64,000 nt of DNA from contig JBBKVO010000040.1 of assembly GCA_037968475.1 (NCBI GenBank), forward strand, positions 3,126 through 67,125. Direction: 5' to 3'. Position 1 is the first letter of the stretch; the number at the start of each line of letters is the position of its first letter. This DNA is from Bacteroidia bacterium. GTDB lineage: Bacteria > Bacteroidota > Bacteroidia > UBA8524. The notes beneath the pieces were generated by a model. The model made no database searches. It was not told the DNA's origin and was given only the letters and a program-made list of their open reading frames with translations. The position numbers and the translations under genes are program-made. Below, in pieces: positions 25,147-58,203 of this stretch.

Positions 25147-27030
25147 ATGACTGACGACATTAAACACGAGTGCGGCGTAGCATTCATCAGGCTACTAAAG
25201 CCTTTGGAGTATTACAAACAAAAGTATGGTACTGCTGCTTACGGACTAGAAAAACTCTCTATGCTTATGATTAAGCAAAAAAATAGAGGGCAAAACGGCG
25301 CAGGCGTTGCAAGTATAAAATTGGATATCCCTGAGGGGCATCAATACATACACCGCTATCGTACAGCATCAAAAAACTATCTGGCCGATACCATTGGCCA
25401 TGTTACAGGACACTACAAAGCTCTTACTCAAGAGCAAAAAGAGGATGTTGACTACCTAAGAATTAATACTCCTTACATAGGCGAATTATTATTAGGGCAC
25501 TTACGCTACGGAACATACTCGCGCAATACCGATGATTTGTGCCACCCTTTTTACAGGCGTAACAACTGGATGAGCCGAAACCTTGTTTTGGCGGGCAACT
25601 TTAATATTACCAATGTTGATGATTTATTTAATCAACTGGTAGAGTTGGGGCAACACCCTAACGAAAAGGCCGATACTATTTTGATGCTTGAAAAAATCGG
25701 GCACTTTTTAGATGATGAAGTTGGTGAAATTTACCACCGCTATAAAGACAAACTAACGCACCGCCAAATATCTGATAAGATACGCGAGGAAATAAGTATC
25801 CCCCAAATACTAAAACGCTCGTTCAAAGCTATTGACGGCGGGTTTACTATGGTAGGTATGATTGGGCACGGTGATGCTTTTATACTGCGCGACCCTGCGG
25901 GCATTCGCCCTGCCTTTTACTATATTGATGATGAAGTATGTGTGGCCGCTAGTGAACGCTCGGCTATACAAACTGTATTTAATGCCCCTATTGACGAGGT
26001 AAAAGAAATAACCCCCGGTAGTGCGCTTATAGTGCGCAAAAACGGTGAGGTGAAAGAAGAAGAGATTTTAGCCCGTGTAGAACAGCTTTCGTGCACTTTC
26101 GAGCGTATTTACTTTTCGAAAGGTAACGATAGGGATATTTATAAAGAACGTAAAAGCCTTGGACATCAAGTAGCTGAGAAAGTATTGCGTAAGGTGAATT
26201 ATGACTTTAACAACACTATTTTTAGTTATATACCCAACACTGCCGCTACCAGTTTTTATGGTATGATGGACGGTGTGAATGATTACCTAAGCTGGTTTAA
26301 AAAACAGCAAATATTAGCTAACCGCAGCATGACTGAGGATGAGTTGGATACTTTGTTGAAATTGCAACCCCGTAGGGATAAGATTGTGCATAAGGACGAG
26401 AAGCTGCGCACTTTTATTACTGAAGACAGTAACCGAGAGGATTTGATAGGCCAAGTATACGATATTACGTATGGTTTGGTAACAGGTAAAGATACTCTTG
26501 TAGTGGTTGACGACTCAATTGTGAGAGGCAATACTTTGAAGATGAGTATTTTGAGGATTTTAGACCGATTAGGCCCCAAAAAAATCATAATAGTATCATC
26601 GGCTCCGCAAATACGCTACCCCGATTGTTATGGTATAGATATGTCGAAACTAAAAGACTTTGTGGCCTTTAAAGCCATGATAGAGCTGATAGAAGAAAAC
26701 AATTTAACCCATAAACTAGACGAGGTATATGCTAAGGCTTTAGAAGAAATGAAAAAGCCTGCCGAAGAGATGGTGAATGTGGCGAAAGAATTATACGCAC
26801 TGTTTACTACCGACCAAATAACCGATAGGATAGTAAAAATACTAACTCCTGCTGATATTAATGCAGAAGTAGATATTATATATCAATCTATAAGCAACCT
26901 ACACACAGCTTGCCCCAACCACAAAGGCGATTGGTATTTTACAGGTAACTACCCCACCCCCGGTGGCACAAGGGTAGCTAACAAAGCATTTATAAACTAT
27001 TACAGTGGTAGCAGCGAAAGAGCTTACTAA
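25147..27030 (+). CDS. purF: Amidophosphoribosyltransferase (Bacteroidota type)
   Basis: KHECG Ntn nucleophile, GHLRYGT, RDPAGIRP, CTFERIYFS, PRPP motif VVVDDSIVRGNT, YGIDM. Confidence 0.92.
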   Translation: MTDDIKHECGVAFIRLLKPLEYYKQKYGTAAYGLEKLSMLMIKQKNRGQNGAGVASIKLDIPEGHQYIHRYRTASKNYLADTIGHVTGHYKALTQEQKEDVDYLRINTPYIGELLLGHLRYGTYSRNTDDLCHPFYRRNNWMSRNLVLAGNFNITNVDDLFNQLVELGQHPNEKADTILMLEKIGHFLDDEVGEIYHRYKDKLTHRQISDKIREEISIPQILKRSFKAIDGGFTMVGMIGHGDAFILRDPAGIRPAFYYIDDEVCVAASERSAIQTVFNAPIDEVKEITPGSALIVRKNGEVKEEEILARVEQLSCTFERIYFSKGNDRDIYKERKSLGHQVAEKVLRKVNYDFNNTIFSYIPNTAATSFYGMMDGVNDYLSWFKKQQILANRSMTEDELDTLLKLQPRRDKIVHKDEKLRTFITEDSNREDLIGQVYDITYGLVTGKDTLVVVDDSIVRGNTLKMSILRILDRLGPKKIIIVSSAPQIRYPDCYGIDMSKLKDFVAFKAMIELIEENNLTHKLDEVYAKALEEMKKPAEEMVNVAKELYALFTTDQITDRIVKILTPADINAEVDIIYQSISNLHTACPNHKGDWYFTGNYPTPGGTRVANKAFINYYSGSSERAY

Positions 27031-27258: not shown

Positions 27259-27738
27259 ATGAAACACGAAACCAGCACCATAAAAGCCGAAATGCGCAAA
27301 ACCATTTTTGCAGCCGAAGAGCATTTGGCAATAACTATAAACGATGAGTTGCTGGATGTGTTTATTGATGAGTTTTATCCTGATGAAGAATACTTAGGGC
27401 TAATACCCACCTATTTGCCCGCTTTTGATAACGAAGACGAGTACGATTTGGTAATGGAGCGTGCTGTACCCGAAGAAGGAAAAACAACGTTACTACCCAT
27501 ACTAATGTGCCCCGAAGATTTAGATTTGGTATGCACCGTAATAGTAGCACAAGCCAAAACACAAGGCGATTATATAATTTGGGAGCGATTGGGAGTTGAT
27601 AAAAGCGAACCCAACAATCACCCACAAAGTGTAGGCACACAAGTACAATGGCTTACCCATATAAATAAACCACTATACTTTAAAAAGAGCGAATACATAG
27701 AGTGCCTAAACGAATTTAAAAAACTGGCCGAATTATAG
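27259..27738 (+). CDS. Conserved hypothetical acidic protein
   Basis: 159 aa with host-like codons and an LPILMCPEDLDLVCTVIVA motif; function not recognised. Confidence 0.75.
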   Translation: MKHETSTIKAEMRKTIFAAEEHLAITINDELLDVFIDEFYPDEEYLGLIPTYLPAFDNEDEYDLVMERAVPEEGKTTLLPILMCPEDLDLVCTVIVAQAKTQGDYIIWERLGVDKSEPNNHPQSVGTQVQWLTHINKPLYFKKSEYIECLNEFKKLAEL

Positions 27739-45590: not shown

Positions 45591-45763
45591 TATACTGCCA
45601 TGTAAATAGGTACTTGCAATTCACCACAAAAAAAGGTCGAGGCTACTCGCCCCAACCTTTTTTGTTTTTTAAAGTGTGCATATATACTTTACAAATTTGT
45701 AAAATGTCATTACATATTTGTAAAATGTAATAACATTGTGGTTATTACTTAGATCAATTTAAA

Positions 45764-48700
45764 TTGACCGATACATTACTAAAACATATAAGCGCATATT
45801 ATAATACGGTAAAGCAAGCACAAAGCGAAGCCGCTAAGAAAGAGGCTTTAAAAGATTTGCTAAATCGACAATATAGCAATAGCCCTGAAGTGCTAAAGCA
45901 GATTGACCGTATTACATTAGGAGCTGAAAAAGTAGTATTTAATATTCCCAAAGCAGGGAATAAAAAAACAGGTAGGGCAGATACGCTTTACAACAATATT
46001 ATTATTGAGTTTGAAAAAGACCTGCGCCGTTCGGGCGAACACGCAAAAGAACAACTTGCCGAATATTTTTTGGGTTCATACCACAGTGGAAAAGAATATA
46101 ATCTCACCTTAATAATTACCGATTGTATTACATGGCGGGTGTATGTGCCCTCATTAGAAACTTTTGAAAAGATAGAAACAGTTCAGCCCCACGAGGTTGT
46201 TCTGGATGAATTAAAAGGGGGTGATTTTACCTTAACCGAACACAATGGCAAGGATTTTTTCTATTATATCGACCGTTTTTTGTTTCGTAGTCAAAAGCAA
46301 AAAGCTACCCTTGCTTATATAGAACAAGATTTTGGGTTACAATCACAAGTATTTATAAACACATTTAATGCATTAAAATTACATTTTAATGATGTTAAAC
46401 AATTGGGCGAATTGCAAGTATCGTTTGAGCAATGGCGAAAGTTTTTACACATTGCCTATGGTATAAAAGATTTACCCGCTGATATTTTTCTTATCCATAC
46501 CTATTTAAGTGTATTTGCTAAACTATTGGCATATACAGTACTTACCGATGATGATTTTATTGACGATAAAGAGCTAGAACAAATAGTACATGGCGATATT
46601 TTTGAAACCCTAAACGTAAAAAACCTTACCGATAACGATTTTTTTTACTGGGTAAAAAGCCCGCGCAGTTTTCCAGTGCTTAAAGCAGCATTTAGGGAAA
46701 TAGCCCACCAATTGGGCAACTATACTTTTAAAGATGTTGATGAGGATGTACTAAAGGGTGTTTACCAAGAATTAATTGATTTGGATACCCGCCACGCACT
46801 GGGTGAGTATTATACACCCGATTGGTTGTGCCAGAAAGTAGTAGCAGAACTGCCCATTAAACAAAACCAAAAAGTGCTTGACCCATCGTGCGGTAGTGGC
46901 TCGTTTTTACGTACGGTGGTGGATAAACTAAAGGCTGAAAACCCTGCAATAACTGCCGAGCAACTGGCTACACAAGTATATGGTATAGATATACACCCCC
47001 TAAGTGTGCAAATAGCTAAAACTACTTTACTGGTGGCTATTGGCAAAAACCTTATACGCAATGCCCGTAAGCCCATATCGTTAAACGTTTTTTTATCCAA
47101 CACTATACTTGTGCCTGATGGTGTAGATAATTTATTTGGGGGCGATTTTAAAGTAAGTATTGATAGCGAGAAGCATATAGTAAGCACCAATGTACTAAAC
47201 GATATGCAAATGTTTGATGAGGCCATGAACGTGGCCGACACATTGGCTGATTTGGTGATAGGCAAGCAAGCGCACAATACAGAAACGTTTTTTAATAATC
47301 TGAAAAAAAGCTACCCACAAGGGGCTTTTACCAATGCTGATATTGAAAGTTTTTATAAAATATACCTAGCACTTAAAAAAGTAAAAGAAGCGGGGCGCGA
47401 TAGTATTTGGAAGTTTATACTGCAAAATACCTACAAACCCTATTTTTTGCGTGAGCAGTTTGATTTTGTGGTAGGCAACCCCCCGTGGTTTACTTACAGC
47501 AGTGTAAAAAACGAAGAATACCAAAACGAGTTATATCAATTGGCTGATAAATACGAGGTATTGCCCGGTAGCCGTGCCAATATGCCCCACCTTGAAATTG
47601 CGGCTATTTTTCTTGCCCATGCCTCAGCATATTTTTTAAAGCAAGGCGGGCAACTGGCTTTTGTATTGCCCCGTAGTTTTATGAGTGCCGACCAACACGA
47701 AAATACCCGCAGCGGCAAAGCTAAGGGTTTCACCATTACCCAAATATGGGATATGCAGGGGGTTAACAACCTTTTTAGAGTGCCTTGCTGTGTATTTTTT
47801 ACCCAACGCAACGGCAAAAGCGATTATAAAAAAGGAATTGCAGGCCAATTGCTTAGTGGTAATATTAAAAAACACAACAGCAGCTATGCCGAGGTGATGC
47901 AAGGCAGCGGGCTTAAAAGCCAAGCAACAACGTTTTATTATGCCACTTTGGGAAAATCGAGTGCGTTTAGTATTACTGAGCAAAAGGGAAAAAACAAAGT
48001 AAGCCACTATAAAAAACTGTTTAAGCAAGGGGCTACCATAGTGCCCCGCAATTTTTATTTTGTTGAGCTGGCGCAAGATGCACCGCCCGACTGGGACGAA
48101 CGCCTGATAAGCGTGAAAACCAGTGCCGAAAGCATAGCACAGGCAAAAAAACCTTGGAAAGAAATAGAAATGCACGGAGCTATTGATAGCCGCTTTTTTT
48201 TCCGTACGGCCATAGCAAAAAACATATTGCCTTTTGCACTGCACCACCCCGAACTTATTGTGTTGCCTGCCGAAGTAGATATAAACAACCGCCTGCAACT
48301 GCTAACCCACGAAGAAATTTTGAGGCAAGGATATTATCATAGTGCTAAATGGTTTAGTGAGGTAGAAAATTATTGGAATACTTATAAAACCGAAAAGAAT
48401 AAAAAAATTAATAGTGTCGATTATGTCAATTGGCAAAACAAACTTACTGTTCAGGATTTAGATAAAAATCATTTAGTTTTATATAACTCGTCTGCTAAAG
48501 ATGCTAATGCAACAGTTGTTAATAGAGAAGATATTGACCTTACTTTTATTATTGAAAGCACAACCTATTGGATTGCAACAAATAATTTAAACGAGGCTAA
48601 TTATTTAACAGTCATTCTTAACTCTGACAAAACCAACGAGATAATAAAATCATTTCAAGCAAAAGGTTTATTTGGAGAACGTCATGTTCACAAAAAAATA

Positions 48701-48925
48701 TTAGATGTGCCTTTTCCTCGCTATGCTGAAAGTAATAAAACCCACCAGCAATTGGCTGCACTGGGGCAAAGCTGTCACCAGCTTACCCAAGAGTTTTTGG
48801 CAACACAAAACTTACCTGCTCACCTAAACCCCCGTGATTTGGGTAGGTTGCGTACCCAGATAAAAAAGCACCTGCAACCTCAATTAACCGAAATTGACGA
48901 ATGTGTAGGGAAGATTTTAAAATAA
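45764..48925 (+). CDS. Type IIG-like restriction endonuclease/N6-adenine methyltransferase fusion
   Basis: N-terminal RAD...IIEFEK PD-(D/E)xK-like nuclease, GEYYTP, VLDPSCGSGSFL (motif I), VGNPPW (motif IV), C-terminal TRD-like region. TTG start. Confidence 0.85.
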   Translation: MTDTLLKHISAYYNTVKQAQSEAAKKEALKDLLNRQYSNSPEVLKQIDRITLGAEKVVFNIPKAGNKKTGRADTLYNNIIIEFEKDLRRSGEHAKEQLAEYFLGSYHSGKEYNLTLIITDCITWRVYVPSLETFEKIETVQPHEVVLDELKGGDFTLTEHNGKDFFYYIDRFLFRSQKQKATLAYIEQDFGLQSQVFINTFNALKLHFNDVKQLGELQVSFEQWRKFLHIAYGIKDLPADIFLIHTYLSVFAKLLAYTVLTDDDFIDDKELEQIVHGDIFETLNVKNLTDNDFFYWVKSPRSFPVLKAAFREIAHQLGNYTFKDVDEDVLKGVYQELIDLDTRHALGEYYTPDWLCQKVVAELPIKQNQKVLDPSCGSGSFLRTVVDKLKAENPAITAEQLATQVYGIDIHPLSVQIAKTTLLVAIGKNLIRNARKPISLNVFLSNTILVPDGVDNLFGGDFKVSIDSEKHIVSTNVLNDMQMFDEAMNVADTLADLVIGKQAHNTETFFNNLKKSYPQGAFTNADIESFYKIYLALKKVKEAGRDSIWKFILQNTYKPYFLREQFDFVVGNPPWFTYSSVKNEEYQNELYQLADKYEVLPGSRANMPHLEIAAIFLAHASAYFLKQGGQLAFVLPRSFMSADQHENTRSGKAKGFTITQIWDMQGVNNLFRVPCCVFFTQRNGKSDYKKGIAGQLLSGNIKKHNSSYAEVMQGSGLKSQATTFYYATLGKSSAFSITEQKGKNKVSHYKKLFKQGATIVPRNFYFVELAQDAPPDWDERLISVKTSAESIAQAKKPWKEIEMHGAIDSRFFFRTAIAKNILPFALHHPELIVLPAEVDINNRLQLLTHEEILRQGYYHSAKWFSEVENYWNTYKTEKNKKINSVDYVNWQNKLTVQDLDKNHLVLYNSSAKDANATVVNREDIDLTFIIESTTYWIATNNLNEANYLTVILNSDKTNEIIKSFQAKGLFGERHVHKKILDVPFPRYAESNKTHQQLAALGQSCHQLTQEFLATQNLPAHLNPRDLGRLRTQIKKHLQPQLTEIDECVGKILK

Positions 48926-48960
48926 CCCCTCAAAGTACATTTAGTACTGTACACAATTTA

Positions 48961-49111
48961 TGTGCGGCTGTCACTCTGAGTGGAGTCGAAGAGTGTGCTG
49001 TGCGGTTGCCCGTCATTTCCATTTAAAATGGGAATCTGTGCGGAGGATGTAGTTAAAAGAGATGCCTTACGCACAAATTCCTGCCTTCGCAGGAATGACA
49101 GCCTACCGCAC
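48961..49111 (+). repeat. Composite REP/MITE-like element, right of the RM gene
   Basis: Same order of sub-elements as 45423-45590, in direct orientation. Confidence 0.75.
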
Positions 49112-49340
49112 ACAGGCGTATAGTTTGCCCCAATCAATAAAAACTCCAATTACTTTTCTATACGAACGTTCTTTGAATGAGTGGGGTGTACAGTGGCTAT
49201 TTATTTTTGGCAAAACCGCGCAAGCCCTTGTGCAGCACGTAACAAAAATAACACTGTAACAGCGTAACACTGTAACAAGGTTGTTCTTGTATTAGTATAA
49301 CCCCCTAAAGTGGCTATTGTTAAATGCTAAATGAGAAATG

Positions 49341-51569
49341 TTAAATGGCTACCGCAGTGCCTTCAACTTGCTTCTCTATAGAAGTATCGTAGGTTTCTTT
49401 AAACTCGGCAGTCATACCATAAAACTCACCATCAACCAATACTTTACCATCGTTTACTTTACCTATAATGCTATAGGCTTGGTTTGCGGCTTTCAAATCG
49501 GCCTCAATAGCAGCAAGGTCTTGCGGGCGGCAGCTAATAGCTACACGGCTTTGTCCTTCGCCAAACAAGGCTGCATCTTTGCGTAGGTTAGTATCAGTAG
49601 TAAGCTCAAAGCCCAAGTTGTTTTGCATGGCACTTTCAAGCAAGCTAATAAACAAACCACCTTCGGCAATATCGTGTGCCGATTGTACTTTGCCCGTTTG
49701 TATCAGTTTGCGCAGCGTGTTTTGCATTGCATACTCCTCGTCCAAATCGAAATAAGGGGCAGGCGAAAAGTTTTGTTTGTGCCAGTAGGCCAAGTATTGC
49801 GATGATGAAATATCGTTGTGGTTTTTGCCCAACAACACTATCGTATCGCCATCGTTTTTAAAATCAAGCGTCATTTGGCTTTCGCCTTTTTCTATAATAC
49901 CCACCATACCAATAGTTGGGGTAGGGTATACCGCCGTACCATCAATGGTTGACTGGTTGTAGAAACTTACATTACCGCCCGTTACAGGGGTTTTAAACTT
50001 GCGGCAAGCTGCACCCATACCTTTTATCGAGCCTACAAACTGCCAGTATACCTCGGGGTTGTAGGGGTTGCCAAAATTAAGGCAATTGGTTATTGCACTG
50101 GGTGTGCCGCCCGTACAGGTAATATTACGCGCAGCTTCGGCAACGGCTATGGCTGCACCCTTTTCAGGGTCGGCAAATACAAAGCGGCTGTTACAATCAA
50201 CCGTCAACGCCAGTGATTTTTCAGTGCCTTTTATTTTTACCACAGCAGCATCGCTAACGCGGTTAGTGCTTTTGTTTACCGTACCCACCATACTATCGTA
50301 TTGGTTGTATACCCAGCGTTTGCTGGCTATATTGGGGTGGCCAGCTAAAAAGAAGGCGACTTCGGTAAGGTTTTCAGGTTGTTCAACCTTGTCTATACTA
50401 TAATCAGCTATTTTAGCTAGATAAGTAGGTTCTTTATACTCGCGGTGGTATACAGGTGTGCCACCTCCCAATGCCAACGATTTGGCGGGAATATCAGCAC
50501 ACAAATCACCATCCATATAATACTGCACACGGCCTGTATCGGTTACTTCGCCAATTTGGGCAAAGGTAATATCCCATTTCTCCAACACTTTCTCCACTAC
50601 TGCTTCCATGCCTTTTTTCACAATCACCAGCATACGCTCTTGCGATTCTGAAAGAAGTATCTCCCAGTCTTTCATGCCTTGTTGGCGCATGGGTACTTTA
50701 TCCAATTCGATACGCATACCCGTGCCCGATTTCGCGCTCATTTCGGCAGTGCTACAGGTAATACCTGCTGCACCCATATCTTGCATACCTATAACTGCAT
50801 CCGTTTTTAGCAGTTCCATAGTGGCTTCAAGTATTAGTTTTTCCCAAAAAGGGTCGCCTACTTGCACGCTGGGCAAATCGTCAATAGAATCTTCTGAAAT
50901 ATCTTTTGATGCAAACGCAGCACCGTGTATACCGTCTTTACCCGTTGCCGAGCCGTATATATACACTGGGTTGCCTTTACCTTCGGCAATGGCCGAAACA
51001 GTTTTACCCACCTCAGCTATACCTACCGACATAGCGTTTACCAAGTTGTTGGTGTGGTAGCACTCGTCAAAATAAACCTCGCCGCCCACGGTGGGTATAC
51101 CAAAGGCGTTGCCATAGTTGCTAATGCCTTTTACTACGCCTTTTAGCAGCCATTTGGTGCGGTCTTCTTTAAGATTACCAAAACGCAACGAGTTGAGCTG
51201 CGCAATGGGGCGTGCGCCCATGCTAAATATATCGCGGTTAATACCGCCTACACCTGTTGCAGCACCTTGATAAGGTTCTATTGCGCTAGGGTGGTTATGA
51301 CTTTCTATTTTGAAACAAACGGCCAATCCGTCGCCAATATCAACAAGGCCTGCGTTTTCTTCGCCGGCTTCGGCAAGCATGGCAGGGCCTTCTTTGGGAA
51401 GGGTTTTTAGCCACACTATGCTGTTTTTGTAACTACAGTGTTCGCTCCACATCACACTATACACGCTTAGCTCTGTAAAGTTGGGGGTGCGACCCAGTAT
51501 TTCTTTTATCTTGTCGAACTCTTCAGGCAGTATGCCCAGTTTTTTGGCGGTTTCTACGGTAACTTCCAT
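49341..51569 (-). CDS. purL: Phosphoribosylformylglycinamidine synthase subunit PurL
   Basis: MWSEHCSYK, KIESHNHPS, QDMGAAG, LSESQERM, NCLNFGNP, GGNVSFYN. Start moved to MEVT. Confidence 0.97.
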   Translation of the reverse strand: MEVTVETAKKLGILPEEFDKIKEILGRTPNFTELSVYSVMWSEHCSYKNSIVWLKTLPKEGPAMLAEAGEENAGLVDIGDGLAVCFKIESHNHPSAIEPYQGAATGVGGINRDIFSMGARPIAQLNSLRFGNLKEDRTKWLLKGVVKGISNYGNAFGIPTVGGEVYFDECYHTNNLVNAMSVGIAEVGKTVSAIAEGKGNPVYIYGSATGKDGIHGAAFASKDISEDSIDDLPSVQVGDPFWEKLILEATMELLKTDAVIGMQDMGAAGITCSTAEMSAKSGTGMRIELDKVPMRQQGMKDWEILLSESQERMLVIVKKGMEAVVEKVLEKWDITFAQIGEVTDTGRVQYYMDGDLCADIPAKSLALGGGTPVYHREYKEPTYLAKIADYSIDKVEQPENLTEVAFFLAGHPNIASKRWVYNQYDSMVGTVNKSTNRVSDAAVVKIKGTEKSLALTVDCNSRFVFADPEKGAAIAVAEAARNITCTGGTPSAITNCLNFGNPYNPEVYWQFVGSIKGMGAACRKFKTPVTGGNVSFYNQSTIDGTAVYPTPTIGMVGIIEKGESQMTLDFKNDGDTIVLLGKNHNDISSSQYLAYWHKQNFSPAPYFDLDEEYAMQNTLRKLIQTGKVQSAHDIAEGGLFISLLESAMQNNLGFELTTDTNLRKDAALFGEGQSRVAISCRPQDLAAIEADLKAANQAYSIIGKVNDGKVLVDGEFYGMTAEFKETYDTSIEKQVEGTAVAI

Positions 51570-51590
51570 ACGGTGGTTTTTGGAAAGCTG

Positions 51591-51598
51591 CAAAGGTA
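51591..51598 (-). promoter_or_regulatory. -7 promoter box (TACCTTTG) for purL
   Basis: TAnnTTTG 21 bp upstream of ATG 51569. Confidence 0.6.
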
Positions 51599-51851
51599 GT
51601 TATTTTGTTTTTCAACTGTGGTGTTTTGCTATATGTATATCACTAATCAAAAGTAGAAACATAACTTCGTCAAGGATATAAAATTAATAAAAAACGTTAC
51701 TTAAATCTTGGTAGTAATGCTGATTGGATATTAAGGGATGAACAGGGATGGTTACCAAAACCTGAGCCTATAAAATTTGATACGAAGAAAAGATTTTTAC
51801 AATTGGTTGAACAGTAAATCAATTACAGGAATTTAGATTAATAAATTAAAA

Positions 51852-52358
51852 ATGATGAAAAAAGTTTATTTAATTATGACCGCTGTTTTCTTTTCAAGTT
51901 GCGAGCTTTTATTCCTACTTAAAGATGGGAAACCTGAAAAATCAGATTTTCAACTTTATCAAGAAGGATTTGTTAATACAACCAATATTCCTAAATTCAA
52001 TGGAATATACATTATGGAGGATAAGTGGGATGGTGAAATCTTTTACAGGTATTACAAATTTTATGATAGTGGTCAAGTGTTATATGGTAACTTTGATTTA
52101 CATAGTGATTCAGTTTCAGTTAATTTAAAGTTTTCTCAAAAAGGCTATTATCAAATGATAAAAAAGGATTTTTTAAAATTAGAGATGTTTGCTAATGGTT
52201 ATCGATTTTACTATTTTTTGGATGTAGACATAAATTCATCAGCGGACACAATCACTCTTAGAAAACAAACTATGCGTGATGGTTCAAAACAAGAGAGGCT
52301 TAATAAAAAATATGTTTTTATTAATAAAACCCTTTTAGGGGATTACCCGACGTGGTAG
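51852..52358 (+). CDS. AT-rich orphan putative lipoprotein (immunity-like)
   Basis: Lipobox FSS-C, FNGIYI...YYKFYDSGQV, markedly AT-rich. Confidence 0.72.
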   Translation: MMKKVYLIMTAVFFSSCELLFLLKDGKPEKSDFQLYQEGFVNTTNIPKFNGIYIMEDKWDGEIFYRYYKFYDSGQVLYGNFDLHSDSVSVNLKFSQKGYYQMIKKDFLKLEMFANGYRFYYFLDVDINSSADTITLRKQTMRDGSKQERLNKKYVFINKTLLGDYPTW

Positions 52359-52381
52359 GCAATGGTCAAAAATGGTCGCTA

Positions 52382-52648
52382 CCCTTGCGGGCTGTCACCC
52401 TGAGTGAAATAGGAGGGTAAGCGCGTAAGAGGAAGGAGTATGAAATATTCAATCAGAGCGGACGCTCTATTATTTTTGGCACGAGCGGACGCTCGAGCCA
52501 GCTTTAAAGCTTTATTTCAGCCTAAAGGCTTCTATTTCTTTATCAAGCGTGGTCAGTTGTGCCGCTATTTCTTTTTCAGCATTGTGTACTACGGGTATAA
52601 AAGCCAGTGTTTGTATCCCGTTTAGTTCGGGCTGTTTGGCGCGGGTTA
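52382..52648 (+). repeat. About 270-bp direct repeat, copy A (contains 47-bp repeat copy 4 at 52456-52502)
   Basis: Colinear with 53183-53455. Confidence 0.9.
52512..52648 (-). pseudogene. Duplicated 3' fragment (about 45 codons) of the AcpH-like gene
   Basis: 126/137 nt identical to 53319-53455 by manual alignment, no indels; encodes TRAKQPELNGIQTLAFIPVVHNAEKEIAAQLTTLDKEIEAFRLK*. Confidence 0.9.
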
Positions 52649-52752
52649 ATCAATAATAACAGAAGGCGGCTGAACATAAATTTTTAGCAAAAAATTAAAA
52701 AACAATGTTAGTGTTGTAAATATAACAAACCAATAATCAAAACATATATGCT

Positions 52753-53040
52753 ATGAATGATTTAAATGAACTGTTATCAAAAATTCGATTGAGATTGTCA
52801 GAATATCGGTTTCACAAAATAGGTGAAGTTACAAGTATTCATATAAATGCCATTGAAATTGCTGTTTGCTTAACAGAGTATGCATTAGAGGTTAAAAGAC
52901 CTATTAATAAGGATGAGAAAAGGTGGTTTGATGCATTATGGCAAATAACACATGTTCTTGAAAATAGTGATTGGGAAGACTTAATAGATTTATATATAAA
53001 ATTAGTTGATGAAGTCGAAAAAAATAAATTTTTCAGATAG
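52753..53040 (+). CDS. AT-rich small helical orphan protein (immunity-like)
   Basis: 95-aa ATG-started ORF, AT-rich, lying between the direct repeats. Confidence 0.68.
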   Translation: MNDLNELLSKIRLRLSEYRFHKIGEVTSIHINAIEIAVCLTEYALEVKRPINKDEKRWFDALWQITHVLENSDWEDLIDLYIKLVDEVEKNKFFR

Positions 53041-53182
53041 CCTAGTAGGTCGTGTAGCAAATTATCTCCTTAGCATAAAAATGTAAAAGAAGTTCAGAGA
53101 AATTGGAGTCTAATACTTTAACCTTATTGTTTCTTACTTTCTATTTTCAACATCAGCTTCTTATCTTTCGCCTTGAATTATC

Positions 53183-53455
53183 CCCTTGAGGGCTGTCATC
53201 CAAAGGGGATGAAGGTCGAAGGATAAGAGTGTAAGAGGAAGGAGTATGAAATATTCAATTAGAGCGGACGCTCTTTTATTTTCGGCACGAGCGGACGCTC
53301 GAGCCAGCCTTCAACATTTTATTTCAGCCTAAAGGCTTCTATTTCTTTCTCAAGTGTGGGCAGTTGCGCAGCTATTTCTTTTTCGGCATTGTGTACTACG
53401 GGTATAAAAGCCAGTGCTTGTGCCTCGTTTAGTTCGGGCTGTTTGGCACGGGTTA
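53183..53455 (+). repeat. About 270-bp direct repeat, copy B (contains 47-bp repeat copy 5 at 53262-53308)
   Basis: Colinear with 52382-52648 and includes the true 3' end of the AcpH-like gene. Confidence 0.9.
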
Positions 53456-53996
53456 CTACTCGGTTTATAGAGTATAGTAGTTTTTCGTCTATCAGATAGT
53501 ATTGAAGATACTGTGCTTCTAAAAAGCCGTTCCAAAATTTGCTAAACCTATCGCTACCATCTTTTCCGCTAAGGGCTAAAAAATCGACTACGGTTTTTAA
53601 GCTGCATTGGCGCAGGGCAGTGTAAAAATCATCCAATTTTTGCGGGTGTTGTTGTATCAATACCCTATCCAATATCAGCTCAAACAAAATATGACTTAAA
53701 AACCAAAACCGTTGTCCGTCTTTAGGGAAATTGTGTTTTACAAATAAGTCTTCTATAAAGTGGGTGCAATGACCAAAAAATGGGGTGTTATGAAAAAAGC
53801 CATCGGTAGCGTAATGTTGTTTGCTCCCTTCGTTTAGATTAAAGAAATCAGGGTTTACATCACTTCTGTGGTTTAGCGATATGTTTATGTGCTTATTTCC
53901 AGCGGCACTGCGTGCAAAATCGGGCAATACCAAGCCTGCATTGTAGTAGGGGTTATCCTTTTTATGGTCGAAATAGTAGTGGGCGAAGTAATTCAA
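53319..53996 (-). CDS. ACP phosphodiesterase (AcpH)-like protein
   Basis: MNYFAH, GLVLPDF, G.KQH..TD.FFH, HILFELILD. Confidence 0.72.
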   Translation of the reverse strand: MNYFAHYYFDHKKDNPYYNAGLVLPDFARSAAGNKHINISLNHRSDVNPDFFNLNEGSKQHYATDGFFHNTPFFGHCTHFIEDLFVKHNFPKDGQRFWFLSHILFELILDRVLIQQHPQKLDDFYTALRQCSLKTVVDFLALSGKDGSDRFSKFWNGFLEAQYLQYYLIDEKLLYSINRVVTRAKQPELNEAQALAFIPVVHNAEKEIAAQLPTLEKEIEAFRLK

Positions 53997-54088
53997 TTTT
54001 TCTTGTATAAAGTATTTAAGTAAAAAGTATAAAGTAAAGAAAACGTTTACTTCTCTTTACTTTATACCTTCTACTTTATACAGGTATC

Positions 54089-55321
54089 TTACGCTGTAGC
54101 TGTAAGTTTTTTGCGCAAGTTGGTATCCAACAGGTTCAAAAAGTCTTCGGTATACAGGTAGTTTTCAGGTTTAAGGTCTTTACCGTATATGCAAAGGGCA
54201 AGGTCTTTGGTCATGTGGCCGGCCTCTACAGTTTCAACACATACTTGCTCAAGGGCGTGGCAAAAGTTCACCAAAGCCTCGTTACCGTCCAATTTACCTC
54301 TAAATTCCAAACCACGAGTCCAAGCAAAAATACTTGCAATGGGGTTGGTGCTGGTTTTGTTTCCTTTTTGGTGTTCGCGGTAGTGGCGGGTAACTGTACC
54401 GTGGGCAGCTTCGGCTTCCATTGTTTTACCATCGGGGGTAACCAATACACTGGTCATTAAACCCAGTGAGCCAAAACCTTGTGCTACGGTATCGCTTTGT
54501 ACATCGCCATCGTAGTTTTTGCAAGCCCATACAAAATTGCCGTGCCATTTTAGCGCGCTAGCCACCATATCATCAATCAGACGGTGCTCGTAGGTAATAC
54601 CTGCTGCTTCAAACTTAGTTTTGTAGTCTGCTTGGTATATTTCTTCAAAAATATCTTTAAACCTACCGTCGTATTTTTTAAGAATGGTGTTTTTTGTGCT
54701 TAGGTATAAAGGCCAGCCTTTGGTGAGCGCTTGATTGAAGCACGAGTGTGCAAAACCGCGTATCGATTCATCGGTATTGTACATAGCCAATGCTACTCCG
54801 TCGCCTTTAAAATCGTATACATCATAGCTTTGTGGCTCGCCATTTTCAGGCGTGTAGGTAATGGTAAGTTTGCCTTTTCCTTTGGTTAAGAAATCAACTG
54901 CACGGTATTGATCGCCAAAACCATGACGGCCTACACATATAGGGGCAGTCCAGTTTGGTACCAAACGAGGTACGTTTGTACAAACTATCGGCTCGCGGAA
55001 AATAGTTCCACCCAAAATATTGCGTATAGTACCGTTAGGCGATTTCCACATACTTTTTAGGTTAAATTCCGTCATACGCTCTTCGTCAGGCGTAATGGTG
55101 GCACATTTTATACCTACGTTGTATTTGTTTACGGCGTTAGCCGCATCAATAGTTATTTGGTCGTTAGTTTCATCACGACTGGTTACGCTTAAATCGTAAT
55201 ATTTAATATCAAGGTCTAAATAGGGAAGTATTAATTTGTCTTTGATGAATGTCCAAATAATACGGGTCATTTCATCGCCATCCATTTCTACTACGGGGTT
55301 GGCTACTTTTATTTTCTCCAT
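54089..55321 (-). CDS. icd: NADP-dependent isocitrate dehydrogenase
   Basis: [52 protein letters not shown]. Confidence 0.98.
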
Positions 55322-55372
55322 ACTGTGCAGATAAATTTAAGTTGAGTGAGTTGTTTCTAAAAAATCGTTGCG

Positions 55373-55380
55373 CAAACTTA
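55373..55380 (-). promoter_or_regulatory. -7 promoter box (TAAGTTTG) for icd
   Basis: TAnnTTTG about 50 bp upstream of the ATG. Confidence 0.55.
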
Positions 55381-55529
55381 GGCTAATATGCAATTAATTC
55401 AAATAGTAACTCGTAATGAGCGTATAGGCATAAATGCCTATCTTAATTCATACAAGAAAGGTGAAAAATACTCTATTTTACCTTTAGGTATGATTAGGGT
55501 CGGGTTTCAACCCGATATTAAAATATAAT

Positions 55530-56093
55530 TTACTCCCCCGCTTCGCTATCAAAAGCTATGCGCACGCCGTTTTCTTTGGCCACTATCCACGCATCTTTAA
55601 AGCCCATTTCACGCACATCAGCCAAAAAATCTTTAGCAGTGTTTAGGTTGGTAAATCGGCCTAGGGTTAGCTTATCCGTTCCGTCAATAGTTGTTTCAGC
55701 GTGTAGTTCCTTTAGTCCGCGTTGGTATTTTTCAAGGTCAAAGTTTTTAAACGCACCTATTTGTATTTCGTAGTATATACCTGTGTTGTCGTTACTGCTT
55801 TCAATCAATAAGGTGTTTAGTCTTTGCAAGCTGTCGTTAACGCTTACAAGACTATCAAAAGCTTGTTGGTTAGCGCCTTGCTTTAAGAATGAGCTATCCA
55901 TAGATGGTGCGCCATTCATAGTAATTTTTTTAAGCGCAGGGAAACTGTCTTGCAGAAAGGGGAAATACCATATACCACCTACCACTATAATAACAAAAAC
56001 GAAAAGGAAGAAACGCCCGTTAATGCTTCTTTTCGCTTTGTTTTCGCTGCCGCCCTCAATTTCGCCGGCTATTTCAAATTTTTGCTCGCTCAT
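55530..56093 (-). CDS. Membrane-anchored SPOR-like domain protein
   Basis: N-terminal TM, YEIQIGAF...LGRF....A......REMGFKDAWIV. Confidence 0.72.
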   Translation of the reverse strand: MSEQKFEIAGEIEGGSENKAKRSINGRFFLFVFVIIVVGGIWYFPFLQDSFPALKKITMNGAPSMDSSFLKQGANQQAFDSLVSVNDSLQRLNTLLIESSNDNTGIYYEIQIGAFKNFDLEKYQRGLKELHAETTIDGTDKLTLGRFTNLNTAKDFLADVREMGFKDAWIVAKENGVRIAFDSEAGE

Positions 56094-56241
56094 AGTGCTA
56101 TTCAAACCTACGTGGTTTTGTTTTAAAAGCAAATGCCTGCTCTCCACCGTTTTGGTGCTTGTATTGTTGAAAACCTATTTACTATATTGCTAAATTATAC
56201 ACTACAATTAGTGGAACAGTTTTTGAACATTTGTTGTAACA

Positions 56242-56733
56242 ATGAAATTTTCAGCTAAAATAATAGCACTTACGCTTGTAGCCCTTGGGGCTGTGTCTTT
56301 TACGTATAAAAGTGCACCTGCCGAAGAGTTGGCTTGGCAAAATTGGAATGATGGATATAATTTGGTGAAAAAGGAAGGTAAAATTGGTCTTATAGATGTG
56401 TATACCGATTGGTGCGGATGGTGTAAAAGAATGGACAGGGATACCTACGCCAAAAAAGAGATTATTGATAAAATAAATAAAAATTTTGTTCCTATTAAAT
56501 TTAACCCCGAAAAACAAGGGGTATATTATATAGATAGTACTGCATACAGCGGCCCGCAATTGTATGCCATGCTATCAAACAGTAAATCTACAGGTTATCC
56601 AACCACTTTTTTCTTAATACCAAAAGGCGATGTAATGCACGTGCGAAGTGTGGCCGGCTACCAAGCTGCCGAAACTTTTAGCTCATCTTTGGATAAGATA
56701 ATGCAATACGCTGCCGAACTTCCCGAACGTTAA
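56242..56733 (+). CDS. Exported thioredoxin-family protein
   Basis: Signal peptide, YTDWCGWCKRMD, GYPTT. Confidence 0.88.
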   Translation: MKFSAKIIALTLVALGAVSFTYKSAPAEELAWQNWNDGYNLVKKEGKIGLIDVYTDWCGWCKRMDRDTYAKKEIIDKINKNFVPIKFNPEKQGVYYIDSTAYSGPQLYAMLSNSKSTGYPTTFFLIPKGDVMHVRSVAGYQAAETFSSSLDKIMQYAAELPER

Positions 56734-56769
56734 AATAAGTTTATCCTCTCCCCTTCTTTTTCTTTTAAG

Positions 56770-56777
56770 TATTTTTG
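56770..56777 (+). promoter_or_regulatory. -7 promoter box (TATTTTTG) for rlmD
   Basis: TAnnTTTG 25 bp before the start. Confidence 0.5.
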
Positions 56778-56802
56778 CGCCCATAAAAACTGTTGTCTGA
56801 TT

Positions 56803-58203
56803 TTGGGAGCGAATAAAATTCAATTTATAGAAAATTTAGAAATACTAACGGCAGGTGCCGAAGGTAATTGTATAGCCCGCCACGAGGATAAAGTGGTGTT
56901 TGTGCGCAACGCCGTACCCGGCGATGTAGTAAACGTGCGCATTGTAGGCAAAAAGAAACGCTTTTTAGAAGCCGAAATTACCGAGATAATTACCCCCTCA
57001 CCACAACGTATACAGCCCTTTTGCCAACACTTTGGTGCGTGTGGCGGTTGCAAGTGGCAACAAATGGACTATGCCACACAACTGCACTATAAAAACCAAG
57101 TAGTTGTTGATGCGCTAGAACGTATAGGTAAAATAGAAGTTGGGGAAGCTTTGCCCATAGCTGGCTGCGAAGAAAACAGGTTTTACCGCAACCGTATGGA
57201 CTATGCTTTTAGCAACAAACGCTGGCTTGACAAAAGCGAGATGGAGGATGAGGACAAAGGCGAAATGAATGCTTTAGGCTTTCACGTATCGGGTAGGTTT
57301 GATAAGGTGCTGGATATTGAAAAATGCTGGCTGCAAGATGATTTTGGCAATACCTTGCGCAATGGCATAAAGCAATTTGCGCTGGATAACGGTATTACTT
57401 TTTTTGATTTAAAGGAACAACATGGCGTGCTTCGCTCGCTGATAATACGTTGTAGCACACAAGGCGAGTGGATGGTGATTGTAATGTTTCACGGTAGCGA
57501 TAAAGAAGCTATGGATAGTGTGATGCAGTATATAGAAACTACTTTTCCGCAAATTACCTCGCTGTTATACGTTATTAACAACAAACGCAACGATACTATA
57601 TACGACCAAGATATATTGGTATGGAAGGGTAAAGACCACATGCTGGAAAAGTTGGGTGAGCTTACGTTTAAAATTCGCCCGAAATCATTCTTTCAAACCA
57701 ATACCCGCCAAGCAGAAACACTGTACAACATTACCAAAGATTTTGCAGGACTAACAGGCGATGAGGTAGTGTACGATTTGTATACAGGCACAGGCAGTAT
57801 AGCCAATTACCTTGCCCGCACTGCTAAAAAAGTAGTGGGTGTGGAATATGTAGAACAAGCTATTGACGATGCCCGCGAAAATGCGGAGCTAAACAATATT
57901 ACCAATACTGTTTTTTATGCCGGTGATATGAAAGACGTGCTGAACGATGATTTTATTGCCGCCAATGGCAAGCCCGACATTGTAATTACCGACCCACCAC
58001 GTGCAGGTATGCACGCTGATGTAGTGAAAAAAATATGCGAAATGGCTGCGCCTCGTGTGGTATATGTTAGCTGCAATGCTGCCACACAAGCCCGTGATTT
58101 GGATATGATGCGTGATGTATATCGTGTGGTGAAAATACAACCCGTAGATATGTTTCCGCACACTGCCCACGTAGAAAACGTGGCTTTACTAGAATTGATT
58201 TAG
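56803..58203 (+). CDS. rlmD: 23S rRNA (uracil-1939-C5)-methyltransferase
   Basis: TRAM domain, CQHFGACGGC, SFFQTN, DLYTGTG, DPPRAG, YVSCN, DMFPHTAHVE. Confidence 0.94.
   Translation: MGANKIQFIENLEILTAGAEGNCIARHEDKVVFVRNAVPGDVVNVRIVGKKKRFLEAEITEIITPSPQRIQPFCQHFGACGGCKWQQMDYATQLHYKNQVVVDALERIGKIEVGEALPIAGCEENRFYRNRMDYAFSNKRWLDKSEMEDEDKGEMNALGFHVSGRFDKVLDIEKCWLQDDFGNTLRNGIKQFALDNGITFFDLKEQHGVLRSLIIRCSTQGEWMVIVMFHGSDKEAMDSVMQYIETTFPQITSLLYVINNKRNDTIYDQDILVWKGKDHMLEKLGELTFKIRPKSFFQTNTRQAETLYNITKDFAGLTGDEVVYDLYTGTGSIANYLARTAKKVVGVEYVEQAIDDARENAELNNITNTVFYAGDMKDVLNDDFIAANGKPDIVITDPPRAGMHADVVKKICEMAAPRVVYVSCNAATQARDLDMMRDVYRVVKIQPVDMFPHTAHVENVALLELI

Follow-up and report, generated by a model that had tools for sequence, protein, structure and literature searches.

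How two small AT-rich genes, each followed by the same hairpin repeat, came to lie between housekeeping genes and beside a partial copy of one neighbour's 3' end is the question raised by this locus. An earlier note on the 64,000-nt stretch of DNA analysed here (the window) had answered it with an integrase-free, repeat-anchored site at which such genes are captured. Our analysis gives a plainer answer: between purL and the AcpH-like gene lies an islet, particular to this lineage, that consists of two small accessory genes rich in AT, and the locus does not constitute a new capture system but belongs with known kinds.

Organization of the purL/AcpH-like interval

The interval and its flanks comprise the following elements (coordinates in the window; G000 is the focal genome, G005 its sister genome, and X7 one of three runs with contigs from relatives):

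49341..51593, minus strand: purL-like gene, 750 aa (ORF list); the conserved left flank
51628..52381, plus strand: insert unit S1, 29.0% G+C, specific to G000, carrying ORF168
51852..52358, plus strand: ORF168, lipoprotein-like, a probable orphan immunity protein
52382..52455, plus strand: 5' module of the composite element, copy A (BLAST and alignment of 11 composite copies)
52456..52504, plus strand: REP copy A, two GAGCGGACGCTC hairpins (nhmmer census)
52512..52656, minus strand: relic copy of the end of the AcpH-like gene, 45 codons and stop, ~138 nt (alignments)
52657..53182, plus strand: insert unit S2, 28.5% G+C, carrying ORF95 and bracketed by the duplication
52753..53040, plus strand: ORF95, encoding a small helical bundle; its family is sparse and uncharacterised
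53183..53261, plus strand: 5' module of the composite element, copy B (alignments)
53262..53310, plus strand: REP copy B, orthologous to the single-hairpin REP beside the gene in G005 and X7
53319..53996, minus strand: intact AcpH-like gene, 225 aa, the anchor (ORF list)
54089-55321, minus strand: icd, adjoining the AcpH-like gene throughout the genus

The repeats, duplicated gene end and ORFs that the earlier note described are all recovered by repeat search, self-BLAST and global alignment. The sequence at 52382-52656 recurs in direct orientation at 53183-53456 (88% identity, offsets of 801-807 nt). Each copy comprises the composite repeat, the double hairpin of 47-49 nt and, from the AcpH-like gene, its final ~138 nt; the AT-rich ORF95 sits between the copies and the AT-rich ORF168 to the left of both. 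The repeat search returns three direct repeat families: 52502-52648/53309-53455 (147 nt, 90%, spacing 807), 52414-52513/53220-53319 (100 nt, 90%, spacing 806) and 52382-52400/53183-53201 (spacing 801). Self-BLAST merges these into one 273-nt pair of 87.5% identity, and global alignment of the two copies has 237 matching positions, with 31 mismatches and 13 gap columns. Taken part by part, the composite 5' module shows 61 matches, 13 mismatches and 5 gap columns between copies A and B, the REP is identical at 46 of 49 positions, and the coding part at 126 of 138 with no indels. The duplication is well above chance expectation, and the view stands that a ~0.8-kb unit was gained and the anchor duplicated with it. 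The locus had also been called a cassette array: two units are indeed present, but 'array' rests on these two, since the duplication brackets only one of them and leaves ORF168 outside. As a separate observation, in both copies the left edge of the duplication comes within a few nt of the outer limit of the composite REP element; such an edge would also suit a role for that element.

The reading frames of ORF168, ORF95 and the 225-aa AcpH-like gene are all open in the ORF list. The insert units (29.0% and 28.5% G+C) compare with a genome at 38.6% and flanks at 40-47%. The statement that no recombinase is present nearby agrees with our searches: none of the four tyrosine recombinase (PF00589) matches and none of the six Y1 transposase (PF01797) matches in G000 is on the focal contig (C40), the ORF list has no integron-integrase in 47000-57000, and there are no Rfam matches in 51400-54200.

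Relatives and assembly support

The whole 1.66 kb is missing from G005, in which about 330 nt separate purL from the AcpH-like gene and a single-hairpin REP lies at the gene's stop. In G005 and in the contigs of relatives from the three runs X2, X3 and X7, the match to the focal sequence ends at 51627 and resumes at 53247 or 53279. These runs cover only the flanks and the REP, and the absence counts in X2, whose contig alone is joined across (it bridges 51627 and 53247 with 185 nt between); the X3 and X7 contigs end at the same points as the G005 match. The islet being absent from G005 and from these contigs, the interval is strain-variable, as predicted. The companion prediction of variable cassettes at a constant repeat and anchor is not supported, in that no alternative cassette is seen at the purL/AcpH-like site in the four relatives. 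Between G000 and G005 there is no step in divergence that would mark an imported block: identity is 92.6% over purL (49317-51627), 90.1% over the AcpH-like gene and icd, and 91.8% over the next block.

Run X1 holds 0.95 of the sampled words and is probably the source sample; because this best-holding run is a sediment metagenome, the focal genome is probably a MAG. The Logan contigs of X1 cover purL to REP-A, and REP-A into the relic gene end (fragment A). A further contig (52580-53305, 0 mismatches) links fragment A, ORF95 and REP-B, and another covers 53387 onward, all at similar depths (69-89). With respect to a chimeric assembly, which had been named as a possible undoing of the layout, the contigs fit the layout with their 0 mismatches and even depths, but are interrupted, solely at the REP; the joins were checked with contigs, not reads, and contigs alone leave some chance of mis-threading through this 49-nt element.

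The anchor gene and its displaced 3' end

The name 'AcpH-like' is weakly based and serves here as a label for this hydrolase-like gene. The protein scores 14.6 bits (E 0.036) on Pfam ACP_PD (PF04336) against a cut-off of 27, which does not reach the family score; it scores 18.5 bits on PF00882, below the cut-off of 26.8, and has no NCBIfam match. A metagenome scan with it gave 85 pattern matches and no relatives.

We polarised the substitutions in the duplicated gene end with G005 as the third sequence (13 sites, so that the counts are small). Within the homology, eight changes are private to the fragment, two synonymous and six non-synonymous, altering five residues; three are private to the intact copy, all synonymous and at third positions; and two are private to G005. 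Since the fragment's own changes are mostly non-synonymous and those of the intact gene all synonymous, the fragment looks like a decaying relic rather than the diverged functional allele for which it had been taken. The earlier figure of 11 mismatches, 5 of them synonymous, is right as a count, but mixes two lineages that differ once polarised. The displaced fragment (52512-52656) is kept together with the older downstream part, namely REP-A and then ORF168.

The two accessory genes

ORF168 probably encodes an orphan immunity protein directed against an Rhs/Ntox23-type toxin, as judged from the position of its homolog, which occupies the immunity slot after such a toxin. This 174-aa homolog (G001/L054, 65-68% aa identity) overlaps the 3' end of an Rhs-core ORF with TIGR03696 and Ntox23 (27.5-27.7 bits, cut-off 26.2), and so lies directly downstream of a polymorphic toxin, as had been anticipated. 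The Rhs array of G001 has four ORFs above the TIGR03696 cut-off, with a small ORF after each. The toxin context of the family amounts to this one genomic context: a scan of the genome collection with the ORF168 alignment returned solely the G001 contig, and a metagenome scan gave 293 matches and no relatives. The family numbers 6 proteins in 5.8 billion; no Pfam, NCBIfam or ESM Atlas family was found for it, and AlphaFold2 models ORF168 poorly (pLDDT 52). Ntox23 was not found in G000, and a 51-codon open frame upstream of ORF168, considered as a possible toxin remnant, has no homolog in that genome. G000 and G005 each have a 28%-identical paralog that occurs singly, next to housekeeping genes. 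The table of the 2012 toxin catalogue, in the part available to us, gives no immunity family for Ntox23 (PMC3482391), and the ORF168 family is a candidate partner for this toxin domain.

ORF95 has relatives in 61 representative clusters (E<=0.001), and among 401 genomes of the class its family turns up in 4. Its AlphaFold2 model is confident (pLDDT 96.1), with no Pfam, NCBIfam or ESM Atlas family and no Foldseek match in the PDB at E<=0.001. In VIA-align its best match is the T6SS immunity protein Tsi6 (4zuy_A, Z 9.3, rmsd 2.2, 85 residues), a score that ties with those of unrelated helical bundles (Z 8.4-8.9) and is below the ~13 advised for such folds. The expectation that its homologs would lie near toxins is not borne out: toxin linkage is seen in 0 of 3 other contexts, which are unrelated ones. 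A tblastn search of G000 with the islet ORFs found only the ORFs themselves and no source copy of the inserts.

The hairpin is an ordinary genome-wide REP

The 47-bp repeat had been read as a dedicated cassette site. It is instead an ordinary genome-wide REP with its own RAYT: an nhmmer census of G000 finds 146 copies (36 per Mb), 141 of them outside any ORF of at least 150 aa; of the 127 copies with two neighbours, 70 are between convergent ORFs, and 16 of the 146 are within 400 nt of a contig end. The unit consists of two identical hairpins in direct order (47-49 nt; fold z-score -2.7), often after a ~75-nt module, and the resulting composite element has about 10 further dispersed copies in the genome. 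The RAYT (REP-associated tyrosine transposase) is a 184-aa ORF (G000:C52:26754-27308) that reaches 103.3 bits against NCBIfam NF047646, where the cut-off is 80, and 44.9 bits against PF01797; REPs of the focal family lie on either side of it in inverted orientation, at 26698-26745 (-) and 27465-27513 (+). Both features by which REP/RAYT systems are recognised, an extragenic high-copy palindrome and a RAYT with inverted REPs of its own family, are thus present. The five other Y1 genes in G000 have no REP of the focal family within 3 kb. Among 149 local direct-repeat pairs that we screened, five have a REP in both copies, and a long gene extension (144 nt) is seen at the focal locus only. In the part of the literature available, REPs are recorded as targets of IS elements (PMC1525189); they are not known as gene capture sites.

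The same footprint at other loci

Comparable architecture is found elsewhere in G000. On C21, a 323-nt duplicate of an ORF 3' end and terminator surrounds a 928-nt insert (31% G+C) that carries TM2 and DUF2752 genes; on C5, a 187-nt duplication across a gene junction surrounds an 808-nt insert (32% G+C). Both loci are REP-less and have an empty site in G005. On C24, a 217-nt duplicate of the 3' end of a phosphopantetheinyl-transferase gene lies beside a lipoprotein ORF, in place of which G005 has a different ORF. Seven other candidate loci were compared with G005, with a clean empty site in two; four (on C45, C43 and C30, and a second C5 locus, C5:219973) had no interpretable empty site. The inserts of the footprint loci have no sequence in common, insert ends included. 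The combination of insert and anchor duplication is not tied to the REP, since just one of the five REP pairs has this architecture and REP-less loci show the footprint.

Proposed route of insertion and its rivals

We lean towards the view that the ORF95 unit was inserted by single-crossover integration of a circle or by homology-facilitated illegitimate recombination (HFIR), with no special repeat-based capture. The 3' end of the AcpH-like gene, with the REP beside it, would merely have provided homology for general RecA-type recombination. By one route, circular DNA bearing that gene-end/REP stretch would have integrated through a single (Campbell-type) crossover; by the other, HFIR would have pushed the old 3' end downstream ('3'-end displacement'). 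Either would leave the gene intact and, beyond the insert, a redundant 3' fragment together with a REP; the fragment would then decay neutrally. The REP would be a pre-existing RAYT-dependent extragenic repeat and not the capture agent. The two routes appear to fit the sequence equally well; Campbell-type integration, HFIR and template switching yield an identical end structure and are indistinguishable at the locus. The donor and the route of recombination are inferred, as are the immunity function and the sequence in which the two inserts arrived. No donor sequence or circular form was seen. Ku was not found in G000 (97.7% complete), and ComEC was found there as in 10 of 14 control genomes.

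Replication template switching of the MMBIR/FoSTeS kind, which would produce duplicate, insert and duplicate in one step, is improbable as the origin of the islet, while accounting for several details. The fork would stall past a hairpin, copy ~0.5-0.9 kb of foreign or ectopic DNA and re-anneal 140-300 nt upstream. Accordant with this, the duplicated block ends just past a hairpin both at the focal locus (the REP composite) and on C21 (a terminator-like GACCACTATCGCGGCC stem), although no hairpin is evident in the unfolded sequence at the end of the C5 duplication. Further, the C21 copies have G000-specific states in common, as expected if templated in situ, the C5 duplication crosses a gene junction with both genes intact, and decay of the fragment is compatible with copies that were initially identical. 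Yet tblastn recovers no second copy of any insert in G000 that could have been the source, and the inserts are unlike one another in sequence; they are, moreover, foreign-looking at 29-32% G+C, and template switching would therefore need incoming DNA as its template.

The footprint with an empty sister site occurs at no fewer than three loci (at least three), without integrase, transposase ends or shared insert sequence. This raises the doubtful prospect that the lineage has a recurrent, undescribed way of gaining small AT-rich genes, immunity-like ones among them, beside gene ends, with ~190-320-nt target duplication. Possible mechanisms would be RecA-only, homology-tagged circles that re-excise between the duplicates, or hairpin-stalled template switching; the purL/AcpH-like site would then be one instance that incidentally contains a REP.

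It is unlikely that the islet is the remnant of a site-specific integrative element that entered the 3' end of the AcpH-like gene, brought a replacement 3' end and later lost its integrase and most of the island. Such elements are classically recognised by a duplicated gene 3' end next to foreign, AT-rich sequence, accretion of integrase-less elements has been described (in the accessible parts of PMC5704250 and PMC3146451), and four tyrosine recombinases are encoded elsewhere in G000. Against this, 51628-53182 holds no integrase or remnant of one, none of the four PF00589 genes is on the focal contig, and the 275-nt duplicate is diverged throughout, its longest identical runs being ~31 nt, with no identity core. 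As the three footprint loci also lack a common insert-end sequence, a single integrase/att system cannot account for all three.

The dedicated, integrase-free and REP-anchored capture site of the earlier proposal, at which nicking of the REP hairpin (e.g. by the RAYT) would start tandem addition of ORF, REP and anchor, we hold to be very unlikely. It draws on the composite REP that ends each unit, the presence of a RAYT specific to the focal REP family, the coincidence of the left edge of the duplication with that of the composite element, the immunity-like nature of one cargo gene and the match of ORF95 to Tsi6 (Z 9.3, tied with unrelated helical bundles). Yet the architecture is seen at 1 of 146 REP copies and the same footprint at REP-less loci; the REP and anchor occur without a cassette in the four relatives, none of which has a different one; the 138 nt of duplicated coding sequence would be needless for a hairpin-directed reaction; and the homologs of ORF95 lie in unrelated contexts.

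Lastly, an assembly artefact, in which wrong threading through the 49-nt REP or a merge of two strains created a tandem layout present in no cell, has the probable MAG status and sediment origin of the genome, the interruption of Logan contigs at both REPs and the 16 of 146 REP copies within 400 nt of contig ends in its favour, but is very improbable, given that the fragment is joined to ORF95 DNA in a 0-mismatch contig with overlapping A-type and flank contigs at depths of 69-89, that a fragment which gives way to unique DNA after ~145 nt cannot be the full allele of a second strain, and that the 5' modules differ (13 mismatches, 5 gap columns), so that reads spanning the 49-nt REP can place the copies.

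With insertion by circle integration or HFIR as the favoured reading, the locus offers a concrete example of tiny accessory genes settling between housekeeping genes without mobile-element machinery, the scar of such a gain being a decaying duplicate of the end of the adjacent gene. If the footprint proves frequent in the clade, it would serve as a marker for dating and counting small gene gains and hint at an under-appreciated recombination route.

Comparison with known systems

The repeat itself compares with the REP/REPIN sequences and RAYTs described by Bertels and Rainey (2011; PMC3116915), as far as the accessible part of that paper goes. Like these, it is a short extragenic palindrome in high copy, mostly after gene ends, with one RAYT accompanied by inverted REPs; it differs in that the unit consists of two direct, identical hairpins, often preceded by a ~75-nt module. 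Integrons are unlike the locus in two respects: there is no adjacent integron-integrase (a tyrosine recombinase), and no attC-type cassette sites, the bounding repeat being a dispersed REP (146 copies, 141 intergenic).

The rAID-1 clusters of the Bacteroidales (Ross et al. 2019, bioRxiv 10.1101/471110), as set out in the available portion of the preprint, have a 5' XerD-like recombinase as their first criterion, up to 31 genes and a cluster-specific motif, whereas the focal locus has no such recombinase, two genes and a genome-wide REP as its repeat. Both are runs of low-G+C, co-directional small genes in Bacteroidota with repetitive intergenic sequence, and in both at least one gene is related to the cognate immunity gene of a polymorphic toxin. 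ORF168 and ORF95, both on the plus strand, make up the arrangement of at least two co-directional genes at 41% G+C or less with repetitive intergenic sequence by which such clusters are defined.

Elements that bring a replacement 3' end of their target gene include e14 and phage 21, which integrate in icd, and ICESt/CIME, which accrete at fda. These and Campbell-type insertion-duplications share with the focal locus a direct-order arrangement of intact gene, foreign insert and displaced partial copy of the 3' end. They differ from it in that the locus has no integrase or attachment core and an insert of only 0.5 kb.

Finally, there are the displacement arrays, among them the Rhs 'C-terminal displacement' that Jackson et al. 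reportedly described in 2009. For the immunity-gene arrays of the Vibrio cholerae T6SS, an HFIR model is given in the available part of Kirchberger et al. (2017; PMC5361080). The focal locus departs from the T6SS and Rhs arrays in having a housekeeping-type AcpH-like gene as anchor in place of a toxin/effector gene, and in comprising two units, with one displaced fragment and one cargo gene lacking a toxin link. With the Vibrio cholerae arrays it shares a homology anchor in a conserved gene, retention downstream of the old 3' end and the gene beyond it, and a pile-up of orphan immunity genes without a site-specific recombinase, for which HFIR has been proposed. The mark of a displacement-type array, a displaced anchor 3' fragment together with an older downstream gene, is found at the focal locus.

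Layout of the islet and its duplicated gene end

In the genome under study (G000; 4.05 Mb in 53 contigs, 38.6% G+C) the window corresponds to C40:3126-67125. It carries an islet of two AT-rich units and two copies of a gene end, with the following arrangement in window coordinates:

49341-51593, minus strand: purL, the conserved left flank
51628-52381, plus strand: unit S1 (29.0% G+C), carrying ORF168 (51852-52358)
52382-52656: duplicate A
52657-53182, plus strand: unit S2 (28.5% G+C), carrying ORF95 (52753-53040)
53183-53456: duplicate B, which continues into the intact AcpH-like gene
53319-53996, minus strand: AcpH-like gene, 225 aa, the anchor
54089-55321, minus strand: icd

The duplicates appear as three direct repeat families (offsets 801, 806 and 807 nt) in a repeat search of the window, as a single 273-nt pair of 87.5% identity in self-BLAST, and as 237 matches, 31 mismatches and 13 gap columns in a global alignment; by all three the layout and counts of the earlier note are right. 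Within each the order is: a module of ~75 nt (61 matches, 13 mismatches and 5 gap columns between A and B), a 49-nt double hairpin, the REP (46/49 identical), a short spacer, and the final 138 nt of the AcpH-like gene (126/138 identical, zero indels). The name 'AcpH-like' is weak: Pfam ACP_PD reaches 14.6 bits where the cut-off is 27, and no NCBIfam family matched.

The 11 mismatches counted in the gene end, 5 of them synonymous, had been taken to mark a diverged functional allele. The count is right, but it sums two G000 lineages that differ once split with the sister genome G005 as third sequence over 45 shared codons. The fragment (copy A) has eight changes, two synonymous and six non-synonymous nucleotide changes (E>G, A>I, A>T, P>T, E>D); the intact gene (copy B) has three, every one a synonymous third position; and the G005 branch has two. 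Small as these numbers are, they show the intact gene under constraint and the fragment, a relic, changing much as unconstrained sequence should. The ratio of changes is compatible with a native or nearly native stretch having been duplicated at about the time of the divergence from G005 or later; no diverged functional allele is needed.

A 51-codon open frame (51665-51817, plus strand) stops 35 nt 5' of ORF168 and ends in ...DWILRDEQGWLPKPEPIKFDTKKRFLQLVEQ*; it has no homolog in G000 and may be all that is left of an upstream gene's end, e.g. that of a toxin. A second G000-specific insertion, missing in G005, lies just past the purL 3' end (45664-49316), bracketed by 169-nt copies (72% identical) of a different dispersed repeat family. 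Its 1053-aa ORF (45764-48925) has N6_Mtase, Eco57I and MmeI_Mtase domains, which suggests a type IIG/IIL-like restriction-modification enzyme.

The islet in related genomes

G005 is collinear with window positions 29.2-58.2 kb at 81-93% identity, and there just ~330 nt separate purL from the AcpH-like gene. Its homology ends at 51627 and restarts within the REP, which in G005 has a single-hairpin form and abuts the stop of the AcpH-like gene. Contigs from three sequencing runs (X2, X3 and X7), representing relatives 92-95% identical, likewise end at 51627 and restart at 53247 or 53279; one X2 contig bridges both points with 185 nt in between. Since the islet is missing in G005 and these three relatives, only one of the five lineages seen, that of G000, has the 1.66 kb. 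To this extent the expected strain-variability of the interval was borne out, but none of the relatives examined (G005 and the three runs) has another cassette at the purL/AcpH-like site. In five more distant species of the genus the AcpH-like gene adjoins icd throughout, while its 3' neighbour varies from species to species and the fetched 7-kb stretches showed no REP core motif (GAGCGGACGCTC); these species are therefore unable to polarise the event.

The two orphan genes

The ORF168 family is tiny, with six proteins in a 5.8-billion-protein collection. Among 61 relatives' genomes 4 gave a match, which in two was weak. The one close genomic homolog, in genome G001 (about 68% identity), overlaps at its start the end of an ORF with a TIGR03696 Rhs-associated core and, C-terminally, Ntox23 (27.5-27.7 bits, cut-off 26.2). 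Four such ORFs, with an Rhs core and a C-terminal toxin, lie on the G001 contig (positions 1-7991), and a small ORF comes after each (130, 174, 188 and 166 aa); only one of the four toxin tips, Ntox23, has a Pfam name. A search of 21 genomes found Ntox23 in G001 alone, and not in G000. A table in the 2012 catalogue of polymorphic toxins describes it as all-beta, Bacteroidetes and RHS-linked, with no immunity family given (PMC3482391). Because its homolog directly follows the Rhs/Ntox23 ORF, ORF168 is best read, from this one genomic context, as a putative orphan immunity gene, in line with the suggested link to Rhs/polymorphic toxins. In G000 as in G005, a paralog (28% identical) occurs as a solitary gene next to housekeeping genes.

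For ORF95 the same suggestion found no support. The family is real but sparse, comprising 61 representative clusters (E<=0.001) and occurring in 4 of 401 genomes searched from the class. Its homologs lie in three unrelated contexts, none a toxin locus: by eye reading of translations, one between glycosyltransferase-like ORFs and one between a murB-like and a transposase-like ORF; and a pseudogene. The predicted structure is a helical bundle (pLDDT 96.1), whose top structural match, the T6SS immunity protein Tsi6 (Z 9.3), is not clear of unrelated bundles; a Foldseek search returned nothing significant.

The hairpin is a REP with its own RAYT

By iterated nhmmer the double hairpin occurs 146 times in G000 (36 per Mb), 141 of these outside ORFs of at least 150 aa, though such ORFs make up 84% of the genome. 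Among the 127 copies having two long neighbours, 70 lie between convergent ORFs; 16 of the 146 are no more than 400 nt from where a contig ends. The composite of module and REP has ~10 more dispersed copies with unrelated flanks, and G005 shares the REP family with dozens of matches. One of six Y1-transposase genes in G000, a 184-aa ORF on contig C52 (26754-27308), has inverted copies of the same REP on both sides (26698-26745, minus; 27465-27513, plus) and scores 103.3 bits (cut-off 80) on NCBIfam NF047646, 'REP-associated tyrosine transposase' (RAYT). The remaining five have no copy of this REP within 3 kb; two of these contain internal stop codons. The repeat is thus an ordinary REP with its own RAYT, the pair being a regular member of its kind. 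That no recombinase is present holds for the focal contig, C40 (0/4 PF00589 and 0/6 PF01797 matches), but the hairpin is not an orphan motif, its RAYT being on C52.

Elsewhere, at C5:189727-193872, a tyrosine recombinase gene adjoins a tandem row of six paralogs, each 125-143 aa long with a signal peptide. The four upstream ones repeat as a 472-nt unit at 84-87% identity, and the last two are ~590 nt apart.

Long gene-end duplications elsewhere in the genome

G000 is very repeat-rich: local direct-repeat pairs within 6 kb number 304, many intergenic with a 180-350-nt period. Our screen covered 149 pairs with a spacing of 400-4000 nt and a length of at least 90 nt. Five have a REP in both copies; of these, the focal pair alone encloses low-G+C DNA and reaches deep into a gene (144 nt). 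Small AT-rich ORFs are also enclosed by several repeats of 100-320 nt that have two copies and are otherwise unique. Comparison with G005 took in seven loci of this type, of which C45, C43, C30 and C5:219973 were uninterpretable; the others are:

C21:47065-48633: REP-less; 323-nt duplication around an AT-rich insert
C5:104577-105752: REP-less; 187-nt duplication, copies at 104577 and 105566
C24:98571-100468: 217-nt copy of a phosphopantetheinyl-transferase 3' end

At the C21 locus G005 has a single, insert-free copy of the 323-nt stretch (an ORF 3' end plus terminator); the two G000 copies flank 928 nt (31% G+C) that encode TM2 and DUF2752 proteins. Two indels mark the distal copy, and G000-specific states are common to both. 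At the C5 locus the 187-nt stretch spans a gene junction, single and empty in G005; in G000 two copies surround an 808-nt insert (32% G+C) with a 213-aa ORF, and both flanking genes are intact. At C24 two distinct small lipoprotein ORFs, both starting MRKLKALV, come after the transferase gene, and the 217-nt copy separates them; in G005 the site is occupied by another ORF, a 129-aa membrane protein. The inserts, compared with one another, have no common sequence. An insert with a long gene-end duplication therefore recurs without REP, shared ends or a nearby recombinase. Of all the observations, this recurrent footprint most deserves further work.

Possible origins and known systems

In the final structure an intact gene comes first, then an insert, then a redundant 3' fragment and, with it, the DNA that formerly lay downstream. 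This exact outcome is produced by either of two routes: insertion-duplication, in which a circle with a homologous stretch enters the chromosome by one crossover, or homology-facilitated illegitimate recombination (HFIR), anchored in the gene, with an illegitimate join ~145 nt before the old stop. We lean towards such generic recombination by either route. HFIR is the published model for orphan immunity gene arrays and Rhs 3' displacement (PMC5361080). Ku was not found in G000, which speaks against end-joining capture; ComEC is present and uninformative on the insertion route.

Template switching at a hairpin-stalled fork, which is favoured by duplicates ending just past hairpins at two loci, appears unlikely, and a remnant of an integrase-borne island rather more so. 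The earlier note's REP-anchored capture system is quite improbable: one of five REP pairs has the architecture, REP-less loci carry the same footprint, and the REP is genome-wide. An assembly artefact is very unlikely. Run X1, a sediment metagenome with 0.95 of sampled words present, is probably the source sample, and G000 therefore probably a MAG; its contigs (depths 69-89) cover 50800-52474, an A-type piece from REP into fragment, 52580-53305 (0 mismatches) and 53387 onward, breaking at the REP only.

The finding is real and the earlier reading partly good, but the claim of a dedicated system is not supported; the islet is of known kinds. An integron was rejected, as was, against the published criteria, a rAID-1 cluster: there is no recombinase at the site and the repeat is a genome-wide REP. 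In a limited search of the literature for links between REPs and gene capture, which leaves absence unproven, REPs appeared only as IS targets (PMC1525189). Closest in working would be the T6SS/Rhs displacement arrays, although the G000 anchor is a housekeeping-type gene.
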